64,000 nucleotides of DNA from the sequence record MK327940.1; one strand, 5' to 3'. Both the position numbers and the translations under genes were made by a program. This document shows, piece by piece, positions 25,248-61,839 of this stretch; position 1 is the stretch's first letter, and each line of letters begins with the position of its first letter. Under the pieces are notes generated by a model. It did no database searches. It was not told the DNA's origin and saw nothing but the letters and a program-made list of their open reading frames with translations. The stretch is from Escherichia phage vB_EcoM_G29.

Positions 25248-25580
25248 TTATTTTACTACTTTCCAATGCTGCATGTCAAGTTTACCAACTTTTTTCATCT
25301 TCTCAATTAAGCGTTCGGCACGTTGGCGAGCTGTAACATAATACCATTCACCTAATTCATTTTGTTCAATTTTTCCAACGATTACTGTATTCAATTCATA
25401 AATCCAACCAGTAAAGAAATTATGAACTTGAATTGTAAAGGTGAAATCTGTTCCCATACCTTCTGTTGTTTCTACTTCAATAATATCACCTTCAACTGCC
25501 ATTAAGAACCACATAGTTTCATCATATTTACCATTGAAGCATTTAGTTTTAACTGCAGCGTTCAGATTAATCGTTTTCAT
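25248..25580 (-). CDS. Hypothetical protein (30.8 position)
   Basis: 110-aa ORF; early promoter upstream at 25608-25637. Confidence 0.6.
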   Translation of the reverse strand: MKTINLNAAVKTKCFNGKYDETMWFLMAVEGDIIEVETTEGMGTDFTFTIQVHNFFTGWIYELNTVIVGKIEQNELGEWYYVTARQRAERLIEKMKKVGKLDMQHWKVVK

Positions 25581-25607
25581 TTTATTCTCCTTTGTTTGTG
25601 TAAGATA

Positions 25608-25637
25608 ATACTATCACAAAGGAACCATACTGTAAAC
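25608..25637 (-). promoter_or_regulatory. T4-type early promoter
   Basis: Minus strand GTTTAC -35 (25632-25637) and -10-like TAGTAT 18 nt downstream. Confidence 0.5.
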
Positions 25638-25654
25638 AACTTTATGCAATCTTT

Positions 25655-25685
25655 GGAAAATAAAAAAGGACTCCCGAAGGAGTCC
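25655..25685 (-). terminator. Terminator after the 30.9-position ORF
   Basis: GGACUCC-UUCG-GGAGUCC hairpin followed on the minus strand by cuuuuuuauuuu. Confidence 0.7.
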
Positions 25686-25690
25686 TCAAC

Positions 25691-25867
25691 TTATGCTTTC
25701 TGCTTACCAAAACGAGAAGCATCATCTCGAAGAACCGCACGTGCTCGGCGCATGATCTTCTCAACAGTTTGATTGATACGAGAGTTCGACCCACGCTTGT
25801 AGCCAGCGCGTTTAGAATCACCAACTTTCTTTTCAACTGCTTTCTTTGCTTTAGCTTGTTTTGCCAT
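25691..25867 (-). CDS. Small lysine-rich basic protein (30.9 position)
   Basis: Frame of track ORF 25691..25909, taken from the internal Met (MAKQAKAKKAVEKK...); start uncertain, alternative ATG at 25909. Confidence 0.5.
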   Translation of the reverse strand: MAKQAKAKKAVEKKVGDSKRAGYKRGSNSRINQTVEKIMRRARAVLRDDASRFGKQKA

Positions 25868-26265
25868 TATAAATTCTCTTTTAAATGAAAATGCAGGACT
25901 TATTGGCATTGCCTGCGCAAGCCCTCAAGGGGAACATAGGTTTTTTGATATTTAACGACCAGGATAACCATAAACCCGTCATCATACCTTATAGCTCTTA
26001 TCTGTTGCACACCGTTAGCTTAAAGGTTCCGGGTTCGATTTCTCGAGGATAAGATATATACTGATGGATATATAGGCCTTGAGGCGTACTCCCGATTGGC
26101 CATCACCTCGGGGTAGCATGCACTTGCCGCTATAAGAATAACATTCAAGAGGTACACCGTAAAACTGCCGGGGTCTTAAAACTATAATGATTCGCAAATC
26201 ATTAATCAGACAGTTCGACGGCTCCTCGTTTTAACTTCACACTAAGGCAGTGAATCTCCAATAAA

Positions 26266-26514
26266 TTACTTCAGTGTTACCACAAAGTGACGAACTGCTT
26301 TTCGTGCAGCAGAAGCCAGAGGCTTAGCATATTTAAGTTCATCTTTTTCCTGAAGCTCAGCAGCTAATGCAGTTTGAGCAGGATTCAGATGTTTGAAATA
26401 ACGCAGGATTTCAAGAGCTTCGGCTTCAACATCAATAGATGCGCCATAGTTTTCGTGACCATTATTCCATGCGTTTCGTTGCAGTTCAAGAGCGTGTTGT
26501 AATTGTTTAATCAT
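26266..26514 (-). CDS. rIII: RIII lysis-inhibition accessory protein
   Basis: 82-aa ORF, T4 RIII size and position between the 30.x block and gene 31. Confidence 0.8.
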   Translation of the reverse strand: MIKQLQHALELQRNAWNNGHENYGASIDVEAEALEILRYFKHLNPAQTALAAELQEKDELKYAKPLASAARKAVRHFVVTLK

Positions 26515-26661
26515 TTAAAAATTCTCGTTAGAGATTAAAACTCGGTAGTCACGTTCTTCTGAATTTCATCTTCTTTCGACAGATCTCTCAGTTGTAGACT
26601 ACCACATAGAATTGTTCGGTTAACTTATTATTCCGACACCAAATTCATATTATTATTTATA

Positions 26662-26997
26662 TCACTTATAAAGACACGGAATAGCTTTATAGTGACAGGT
26701 AACGAATTTTTGTTTAATTTCTTTTGGCTGCTTAAGACCCAGAGCTACAAAAGGGTGTGGAACGTTTCGAATTTGACCAACTGGAAGAGAAGTCAAATCA
26801 CCAACTTCACAGAAACCTTCAGGAACATCAGGACCGACAGAGTGAACTACACACAGTTCAGGAACTTCACCTTGAACACGTTTACCGATAATAAGTCCTG
26901 ATTCTGTAACTTCTTCATCACCGGCTTGTGCAGGTTCAGAAACTAAAATAACATATTCACCGACAGCACGAATTGGTAGCTGTTGTACTTCAGACAT
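26662..26997 (-). CDS. 31: gp31 co-chaperonin (GroES analogue)
   Basis: 111-aa ORF, T4 gp31 length. Confidence 0.9.
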
Positions 26998-60046: not shown

Positions 60047-60050
60047 AAAT

Positions 60051-60191
60051 TTACCATACTAGTGAATGTAGTGCCATAATAACATCAGAAATGAAAAGCA
60101 CGACTTGAATTAATCCGAACATTATTCCGTAATATAATGCTATCAATAAAATAGCAAGGGCTAATGAATAGCCCAAGATTTTCTTAATCAT
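60051..60191 (-). CDS. Small hydrophobic membrane protein (candidate ac)
   Basis: 46-aa ORF translated by hand (MIKKILGYSLALAILLIALYYG...), ending 4 nt before the gene 52 ATG. Confidence 0.4.
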   Translation of the reverse strand: MIKKILGYSLALAILLIALYYGIMFGLIQVVLFISDVIMALHSLVW

Positions 60192-60348
60192 TAGTAGATA
60201 ACAACACAAATGTTAAATATGCACACATACCCTGAGCTAAAGCTTGCGAAAACACACTGCTGGCATCAATCAGATAGTTAAAACACATGCTACTATCCAA
60301 CAAATAAATGAAATAACTCCTAATAATTTTGCGATATTCATATTTTCC

Positions 60349-60429
60349 TCACTGGCGTCCGAAGACGCCTTTAGTTTTAAGATTATTACGATAGAACTGC
60401 ATCACGTGTTCGTTGTGGAAATTACTCAT
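60349..60429 (-). CDS. stp: Stp peptide (activator of the host PrrC anticodon nuclease)
   Basis: 26-codon [29 protein letters not shown] translated by hand; start overlaps the ndd stop (TAATG). Confidence 0.7.
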
Positions 60430-61476: not shown

Positions 61477-61483
61477 ATTTTCC

Positions 61484-61597
61484 TCACATAAATCCAAAGT
61501 AAGCGTTTAATACATCAATCATTAAAACGATTGGGAATATACTCAAAACTACTAGTATTATAACTACATTCCATATAGCTTTAACAATCTTTTTCAT
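61484..61597 (-). CDS. Small membrane protein
   Basis: 37 aa from MKKIVKAIWNVVIILVVLSIFPIVLM... with SD GGAGG; the track ORF start lies upstream of its own promoter. Confidence 0.45.
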   Translation of the reverse strand: MKKIVKAIWNVVIILVVLSIFPIVLMIDVLNAYFGFM

Positions 61598-61624
61598 TTT
61601 CTGTTCCTCCGTAGTTGATAGGTA

Positions 61625-61654
61625 ATAGTACCACGGAAGAACAGTCTTGTAAAC
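61625..61654 (-). promoter_or_regulatory. T4-type early promoter
   Basis: Minus strand GTTTAC-18 nt-TACTAT. Confidence 0.55.
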
Positions 61655-61839
61655 AACTTTTTTAAAAATATTCGTAATAAATGTGAATACCAACTACTAC
61701 CGCTGAAACCTGTGCAACCCACCACGCACAAGCAATAAGTACAGAATTCAAAATTTTCATAATAACCTCATTACAAAAGTAAATGTTAAACAAATTAATG
61801 GAATACTAATTAACCAAACAAAACACCACCATAATGAAC

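Follow-up and report, generated by a model that had tools for sequence, protein, structure and literature searches.

The window analysed in this work is the whole stretch of 64,000 nucleotides (nt) of Escherichia phage vB_EcoM_G29 (sequence record MK327940.1), and the subject is a 152-nt element located in the gap between its genes rIII and 30.9. The window is of Tequatrovirus type. The genes cd, 31.2, 31.1, 31, rIII, 30.9, and 30.8 are located on the minus strand in this order, which is colinear with phage T4. The gap between rIII and 30.9 spans 25868-26265 (398 bp), corresponds to the 3' untranslated region (3'UTR) of rIII, and is 100% identical to that of Tequatrovirus vB_EcoM_G4498. The comparison of homologous sequences strongly supports that positions 25986-26137 in this gap are a structured RNA because these positions exhibit covariation, conservation above that of the flanking genes, and no open reading frame (ORF). 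The features of the locus are listed in Table 1.

The original prediction had described this gap as unusually long, enriched in G+C, and devoid of a convincing ORF, and all three descriptions hold. The intergenic distances in the window have a median of 11.5 nt and a 95th percentile of 245 nt according to a crude gene call. Two nominally larger gaps are open frames that were overlooked by the ATG-only gene caller, and therefore the rIII-30.9 gap is the longest ORF-free gap with above-average G+C. The longest ORFs within the gap are a TTG-started one of 60 aa on the minus strand and an ATG-started one of 55 aa on the plus strand. Neither is conserved because every homologue has at least one stop codon in each frame of both strands. 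The G+C content is 0.417 for the gap and 0.467 for the core, compared with 0.359 for the window (standard deviation of 0.037 among 398-nt windows). The enrichment of the gap is genuine yet modest, where only 7.4% of the 398-nt windows are as rich in G+C as the gap.

Table 1. Coordinates of the element, its parts, and the other features of the rIII-30.9 locus in the window.
Feature	Position	Strand	Description	Basis
Core element	25986..26137	minus	152-nt structured RNA module, four-way junction	Covariance model, T4 absence, covariation
P1 5' strand, CUUAUAGC	26129..26136	minus	Pairs with 25988-25995	Inverted repeat I8, 8/8
P1 3' strand, GCUAUAAG	25988..25995	minus		Inverted repeat, covariation
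P1a-P2 arm	26075..26128	minus	Invariant GGC (26126-26128) pairs with GCC (26075-26077)	RNAalifold
P2 hairpin	26084-26117	minus		6/10 pairs change on both sides
P3 hairpin, UAUAUAU-CCAUCA-GUAUAUA	26055..26074	minus		4/8 pairs change on both sides; 94% of cells pair
P5 arm	25996..26054	minus	Encloses P4 and P6; closes three-way junction	
P5 helix	26048-26054 with 25996-26002	minus		6/7 pairs compensated
P4, UCGA-GAAA-UCGA	26035-26046	minus		4/4 pairs compensated
P6	26030-26034 with 26009-26014	minus		Compensatory events in two lineages
P6 loop, GGAACCUUUAAGCUAA	26015-26029	minus		Invariant columns
Junction strand, GCAACA	26003-26008	minus		Invariant columns
rIII coding sequence	26266..26514	minus	82 aa, gene upstream of the gap	ORF list, T4 annotation, PHROG phrog_1457 (E 5e-44)
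Small hairpin, UUCAC...GUGAA	26236..26254	minus	Just past the rIII stop codon; in T4 and T2, not RB69	Minimum free energy (MFE) fold, alignment
Long imperfect hairpin	26149..26227	minus	Common to T4, T2, and RB69; includes TAATGATT/AATCATTA	Fold z = -1.6, inverted repeat I9, alignment
hpA, UAUGAUG-hairpin-CGUUAAAUA	25949..25984	minus	Present in T4; unique in the 64-kb window	
hpG, GUUCCCCUUGAGGGCUUG	25918..25935	minus	The gccc-tcaa-gggg hairpin of the original prediction; unique in the 64-kb window	Alignments
Hairpin GCAGG...CCUGC	25893..25916	minus	Just before the 30.9 ribosome-binding site	Sequence, alignment
Gene 30.9	25691..25867	minus	58 aa from the ATG at 25867, very basic	T4 annotation, PHROG
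Intrinsic terminator after 30.9	25666-25687	minus		Terminator scan

The structure of the element was derived by eye on an alignment of 23 sequences (A4). Standard pairs are formed in 93.1% of 1055 cells, and sliding the 3' partners by 1-3 columns lowers this share to 30-44%. Of the 46 pairs, 31 vary on both sides, where the shuffle mean is 15.8 and none of 500 shuffles reaches the observed value. The covariation score is 0.369 versus 0.140. G-U pairs occupy 49 cells compared with 11 cells for A-C, which identifies the minus strand, on which the genes are also located, as the selected one. RNAalifold independently recovers P1-P6 and adds P1a, a helix of invariant GGC and GCC. The same structure results from MFE and centroid folding of the single window copy (z = -2.1). 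A structured non-coding RNA was one of the alternatives offered by the original prediction, and it is strongly supported for the central 152 nt only. The alignment that had been suggested to look for compensatory changes does reveal them in the core, and the signal is located in one discrete module. That single module with defined ends and its minus sense strand had both been missed.

The helices P1, P1a, P3, and P5 abut with 0 unpaired nt between them and form a perfect four-way junction. The closing stem P1 has a sequence that differs by lineage, and all eight of its pairs are changed on both sides. The P1a-P2 arm contains a conserved internal loop (AAGUGCAUG opposite CCUCAAG in the window) with the consensus AAGkGCAUG opposite CCUyAwG, where U16:A62 becomes G:U in 6 sequences. 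P4 is often closed by a GNRA loop, except in phage PKM.Lu.22.1 and the Slopekvirus phages. P6 exhibits two independent compensatory events: in Slopekvirus C:G is replaced by U:A, and in Cronus A:U is replaced by U:A. The P6 loop consists of 15 nt with an invariant GGAnCC at its start and an invariant GCUAA at its end. Altogether, the invariant or nearly invariant unpaired positions number about 35. The P6 loop of the Escherichia phage EcS1 type (128.8 bits with the model described below) is 7 nt longer (CCCAGCCUAUGGCCAGC), and its extra sequence resembles a local copy of the CCUCAUGGCC stretch within the 3' strand of the internal loop.

Two additional pairings were considered and rejected. A pseudoknot between AAGG in the 3' strand of the internal loop (CUCAAGG) and CCUU in the P6 loop has its pair 62:129 unpaired in 9 of the 23 sequences, and its GG:CC part is invariant. 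The pairing of CCUCAAGG in the element (26077-26084) with CCUUGAGG in hpG (25923-25930) is complementary at 8/8 positions over a distance of 146 nt, which is at chance level in 400 nt, and is not kept in other lineages when read by eye. A transfer RNA (tRNA) or tRNA-like gene was also rejected. The T-loop-like motif GGTTCGATT that had been pointed out in the original prediction does exist; its location is 26032-26040, four bases off the 26028-26036 that had been given, and it is the antisense of the P4 tetraloop hairpin. ARAGORN reports 0 genes on both strands of 25500-26700, which agrees with the earlier statement that no cloverleaf is formed.

The element of the window exhibits 94.9, 92.6, 84.6, and 79.6% identity to those of Roth21 (Jiaodavirus-type), a Karamvirus phage, PS49, and Erwinia phage Cronus, respectively. 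The nucleotide identity of gp31, rIII, and 30.9 in those comparisons is only 56-75%. Judged from these identities, the element is more strongly constrained than the adjacent genes. It does not behave as a protein-coding sequence. Stop codons are present in all six frames of 23/23 distinct variants, the lengths of the element differ by 1-9 nt between lineages, and no open frame is kept across the homologues in the 23 variants. Several public records (L001, L002, L003, and others) place 'hypothetical proteins' of 36 and 60 aa on the element in frames that are not conserved, and some of the labels there are 'protein rIII', 'lysis inhibition accessory protein', and 'glycogen branching enzyme'. Among the 90 matching records listed, only coding sequences are shown under the element match and none has an RNA feature there.

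These annotations, together with the 153 bp absent from T4 being a multiple of three, are what could be cited for a decayed gene remnant or for small ORFs that are real. Such a reading is scarcely credible. Besides the stop codons and the variable lengths, the substitutions are pairwise-compensatory and not codon-periodic, and decay would not leave conservation above that of the flanking genes. The scar of a lost gene, which the original prediction had also offered, is thus left unsupported. The spurious coding annotations on the element should give way to a non-coding RNA feature.

A covariance model (R1) was built from the alignment A4. The search of the window with R1 gives one match at 25986-26137 (178.6 bits, E 3e-45). 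R1 recovers all family members at 117-179 bits and gives no match at the rIII locus of T4. Each genome record carries one copy of the element. The element is a discrete and non-coding module whose sense strand is the minus strand. The gap at the T4 locus is only 244 bp, where 153 bp (approximately 25991-26143 of the window) are missing. Both flanks of this absence are about 98% identical to the window, and no target duplication is visible at the empty T4 site. The boundaries of the cassette in the window are at about 25985-25991 and 26138-26143. The same insertion point, between …CTCTTGAATGT and GGTATGATGACG…, carries an unrelated hairpin-forming insert of 44-50 nt in T2 and RB69, carries nothing in T4, and is covered by a larger deletion in phage ADUt. 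From these alignments, the rIII-30.9 spacer behaves as a cassette site, and the element is dispensable, as T4, T2, and RB69 all exist without it.

The clean presence or absence at a fixed site that also holds alternative cassettes, the 8-bp terminal inverted repeats (CTTATAGC/GCTATAAG), and the different loci in other phage families would fit an element that acts as DNA, such as a mobile element with terminal inverted repeats, the boundary of a recombination cassette, an origin, or a protein-binding site. We regard this as highly improbable. The terminal repeats are the least conserved part of the element and are lineage-specific yet complementary, as is expected of the closing stem of an RNA and not of transposase ends. 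The excess of G-U over A-C cells points to selection on one transcribed strand. A miniature inverted-repeat mobile element was rejected because the terminal repeats vary by lineage, no target-site duplication is present, and one copy is found per record. The 'ori type 2 repeat' annotated in ATK47 was also rejected as a candidate; it is a 10-nt motif beside the 30.9 start and is located outside the element. The replication element that had been among the original suggestions is unsupported.

The remainder of the gap consists of smaller locus-specific hairpin modules whose order varies between genera. Both hairpins cited in the original prediction are present and fall outside the core in separate flanking modules. 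The hairpin of TAATGATT (26185-26192) and AATCATTA (26197-26204) belongs to the long imperfect hairpin, whose apical part is deleted in phage ADUt. The GCCC-TCAA-GGGG hairpin (25921-25932) belongs to hpG. The module hpA is located downstream of the core in the window and upstream of it in L029, in L031, and in the Jiaodavirus-type L005 (Roth21). The stems of hpA vary compensatorily among loci (GAC/GUC, GGC/GCC, GUC/GAC, and GUGG/CCAC, read by eye). The module hpG is found with the core in every T4-like genus and next to the element at the separate Slopekvirus locus as well. It has the form GUACCC-loop-GGGGCUUG, and its position relative to the element varies between genera. The shuffling of hpA and hpG was surveyed in the loci L005, L008, L010, L019, L029-L031, and L046. 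T4 keeps both modules without the element. The site of the GCAGG...CCUGC hairpin is occupied by different hairpins in other genera (GGGAGC...GCUCCC and GUGGAG...CUCCAC). In PKM.Lu.22.1, a hairpin followed by GGCUUGA is located after the copy of the element.

Some other spacers of the window were also noted. The spacer between gene 31 and rIII (26515-26661, 147 bp) is also long for the genome, AT-rich (0.31), and ORF-free. Two AT-rich stretches of 360-380 bp (60047-60428 and 61477-61839, G+C 0.30-0.34) contain no ATG-started ORF of at least 50 aa, and their longest open frames are 62 and 69 aa.

The distribution of the element extends beyond the phages that are related to the window. In a distant BLAST, Klebsiella and Raoultella phages with unmatched flanks share only the middle piece of the gap, at 91-96% identity. 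The search with the element alone identified 407 phage records, which comprise phages of Escherichia, Shigella, Yersinia, Salmonella, Klebsiella, Enterobacter, Citrobacter, Serratia, Erwinia, and others. The element is present in 179 of 943 records that share T4-type flanks and in 6 of 13 rIII-bearing IMG/VR loci. Further viral pattern scans and a scan of rIII neighbours identified no additional lineages. Among 185,579 species genomes of bacteria and archaea, the first pattern had 0 matches, and a looser one had 6, all below 10 bits by the covariance model and hence due to chance. No element was found in 5,426 E. coli genomes, and the plasmids gave only two 30-nt matches, which were likewise dismissed as chance. 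According to these searches, the element is confined to virulent phages of Enterobacterales.

The element was identified in three genomic contexts. In the T4-like genera (Tequatrovirus, Jiaodavirus, Karamvirus, Cronus, and others), it is invariably located between rIII and 30.9 and lies 70-180 nt upstream of 30.9. In the 76-kb phage PKM.Lu.22.1 (Grimontviridae), it is located between a gene of unknown function and a sigma-factor gene, where a strong intrinsic terminator is present about 45 nt past the element. In the Slopekvirus phages, it is located after small genes near uvsY and faces a convergent helicase gene, and it is followed by about 230 nt without a conserved ORF, a terminator, and the convergent gene. 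The upstream gene of PKM.Lu.22.1 (L009 723-1496) gives no Pfam match and only an unknown-function family in PHROG; its product ends with ...DFDDDCPF, which by eye recalls the acidic C-terminal tip of bacterial single-stranded DNA-binding protein. The gene after the terminator (L009 1725-2294) encodes a sigma factor like those of the extracytoplasmic function group (Sigma70_r2/r4). The ORFs upstream of the Slopekvirus copies are small and Zn-ribbon-like by eye.

The distance from the stop codon of the upstream gene to the start of the element is 3-25 nt in the majority of lineages, among them Cronus, Merlin, Karamvirus, PKM.Lu.22.1, and Slopekvirus. In Tequatrovirus and Jiaodavirus-type L005 (Roth21), other hairpins are inserted between the stop codon and the element. 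The short distance to the stop codon, and the position at transcript 3' ends in two of the contexts, would suit an element of mRNA processing or stability that protects the message of rIII or another upstream gene from 3' exonucleases, or that provides an RNase site to separate the rIII and 30.9 messages. A regulatory or processing region had also been offered by the original prediction. The processing or stability role is distinctly unlikely, as simple protective hairpins need neither the invariant unpaired nucleotides nor a six-helix fold that is 80-95% conserved, and the upstream genes differ among the contexts.

The fold and the conservation of the element look aptamer-like. A cis-acting leader or riboswitch, in which an aptamer for a metabolite or an ion would control translation or termination downstream (of 30.9, or of the sigma-factor gene in PKM.Lu.22.1), is consistent with the variable P1, the multi-helix junction, and the invariant unpaired nucleotides. 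It is also consistent with the position upstream of 30.9 in each T4-like genus and with the order of element, intrinsic terminator, and sigma-factor gene in PKM.Lu.22.1. We consider it unlikely, since the downstream genes are not coherent among 30.9, a terminator with a sigma factor, and a terminator with a convergent helicase gene. The terminator of PKM.Lu.22.1 folds independently of the element, and an alternative pairing with the P1 3' strand leaves it untouched, so that its hairpin forms whether this strand is free or not. No terminator is present between the element and 30.9 in the window. T4 has 30.9 and its 5' region (hpA, hpG, M6, and the ribosome-binding site) without the element, and the hairpin modules between the element and 30.9 are reordered among genera.

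The covariance-model scan that had been proposed earlier assigned the element to no known family. Rfam 15 (4227 models) gives no match at E<=10 inside 25868-26265 or in a 186-nt scan of the core, no riboswitch family included, and no match at gathering level anywhere in the window. The Slopekvirus copy gives only terminator-type noise against Rfam. A sub-threshold match to the Rhizobiales small RNA Atu_C8 is located at 25652-25735 on the minus strand of the window (31.4 bits, where the cutoff is 50; E 4e-4); it spans the 3' end of 30.9 and the intrinsic terminator GAGGACUCCUUCGGGAGUCCUUUUUU and looks driven by the terminator hairpin. A mimic of helix 27 of 16S ribosomal RNA was rejected, where the best local match (GGGAGUAC-GCCUCAAGG) scores 24 and is equalled by 33 of 200 shuffles.

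The many invariant unpaired nucleotides would also be expected of a new class of catalytic RNA, self-cleaving or otherwise. The architecture of the element recalls that of the hairpin and four-way twister-sister ribozymes, in which adjacent arms of a four-way junction carry conserved internal loops. By this analogy a ribozyme may be proposed, and it is very unlikely given that no known ribozyme model matches at E<=10 and that no other ribozyme-associated genes adjoin the element. A binding pocket is favoured, and a catalytic one is less likely.

From the comparison of the sequences, we propose that the element is probably a previously undescribed and independently folding accessory RNA that is portable and likely acts in trans as a binder of a host or phage factor. 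The scan of the window found neither a sigma-70-type promoter nor an intrinsic terminator between rIII and 30.9, and therefore the element is most likely transcribed with rIII. It would then be read as the 3'UTR of rIII and the leader of 30.9. The RNA would fold into the four-way junction with P1 free to vary, P1a-P2 presenting the conserved loop, and P3 serving as a plain hairpin. P5 would end in the three-way junction of P4 and P6 with the invariant loop and the invariant junction strand. The internal loop and the P6 loop with its junction strand, which are located on neighbouring arms, may dock to form a specific pocket. The RNA would work as a self-contained portable unit, and its role would be accessory, for example as a decoy or in counter-defence, rather than that of a regulator of its neighbours. 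The accessory role in trans is favoured because the sequence is kept in three unrelated gene contexts, two of which have a terminator and not a gene next to the element. The sole constant across the contexts is the RNA itself, which speaks against both a classical riboswitch and a function as the leader of 30.9.

A more specific version of this proposal is an RNA with a pre-organised pocket (a ribozyme, or a binder of a small molecule or of the host immune system that serves as a 'sponge' or decoy) that is swapped horizontally as a module of counter-defence or host takeover. It would explain the patchy presence, the extreme conservation, and the independence of the adjacent genes, and we consider it unlikely in this form.

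Several points weigh against the proposal of an accessory RNA. The proposed loop-loop docking draws no support from covariation, as its nucleotides do not vary. The element is located upstream of 30.9 in all T4-like genera, and a role in cis is possible there. Recent horizontal exchange, and not only constraint, could account for part of the very high identity between genera. Only about 10 truly divergent lineages underlie the 23 sequences, and the counts of compensated cells overstate the independent events.

The T4-type phages are among the best-studied genetic systems, yet the element has escaped notice, plausibly owing to its absence from the reference phages T4, T2, and RB69. It is among the most constrained sequences nearby, its complexity is typical of riboswitch aptamers and ribozymes, and it appears to move between unrelated phage families that infect enteric bacteria. 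If the element does bind a host factor or a signalling molecule, it would represent an RNA-based accessory function in the arms race between phage and host, and it would be relevant to the therapeutic phages of Klebsiella, E. coli, and Enterobacter that carry it.

Searches of the searchable literature with sequence strings and keywords found no description of the element. A catalogue of 10,006 candidate structured RNAs in viruses has been reported (Fremin, Bhatt & Kyrpides, 2023; PMC10690425), and like the element its candidates are covarying intergenic motifs, identified on IMG/VR contigs. Its text names no T4-like, rIII, or Klebsiella motif and describes neither a function nor a structure of the element. 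The element may be among the candidates of this catalogue. We conclude that the element would constitute a new RNA family within the orphan structured RNAs of phages, and its existence and its fold are well supported by the aligned sequences.

The element resembles the four-way-junction aptamers of SAM-I and cobalamin riboswitches in its variable P1, its junction helices, its invariant unpaired nucleotides, and its size (130-150 nt). It also has a CUUAUC/GAUAAG helix and an ACCCGG(C)AACC string, which by eye we take to be as in SAM-I. Unlike these aptamers, it matches no riboswitch model of Rfam, has no gene next to it in two of the three contexts, and has no demonstrable expression platform. 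The element shares with the hairpin and four-way twister-sister ribozymes a fully paired four-way junction and conserved loops on arms that are potentially side by side, whereas its loop sequences are different and their Rfam models are unmatched.

The rnaC and rnaD of T4 (species 1 and 2 RNAs) are dispensable structured RNAs of about 120-140 nt that map to the tRNA cluster and whose 3' part is tRNA-like. They and the element are alike in being phage-encoded, dispensable, structured, and early or on the minus strand. In contrast to them, the element is located after rIII and is without tRNA features, and T4 has rnaC and rnaD but not the element. Kinship was rejected, as R1 with filters off gives at best 6.1 bits in T4 69500-75500, which covers the tRNAs, rnaC, and rnaD, and no similarity of sequence or structure is seen.

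The T4-type phages reportedly also carry the promoter-early stem-loop (PeSL) cassettes that are said to have been described by Arbiol et al. in 2010. The modules hpA, hpG, and the T2-type cassettes of the gap are PeSL-like in that they are gained, lost, and reshuffled among T4-type genomes. PeSLs are simple stem-loops that are tied to early promoters and repeated around the genome. The element differs from them in that it matches no promoter, has a six-helix fold of 152 nt, is present in a single copy, and is also found in phages that are not T4-like.

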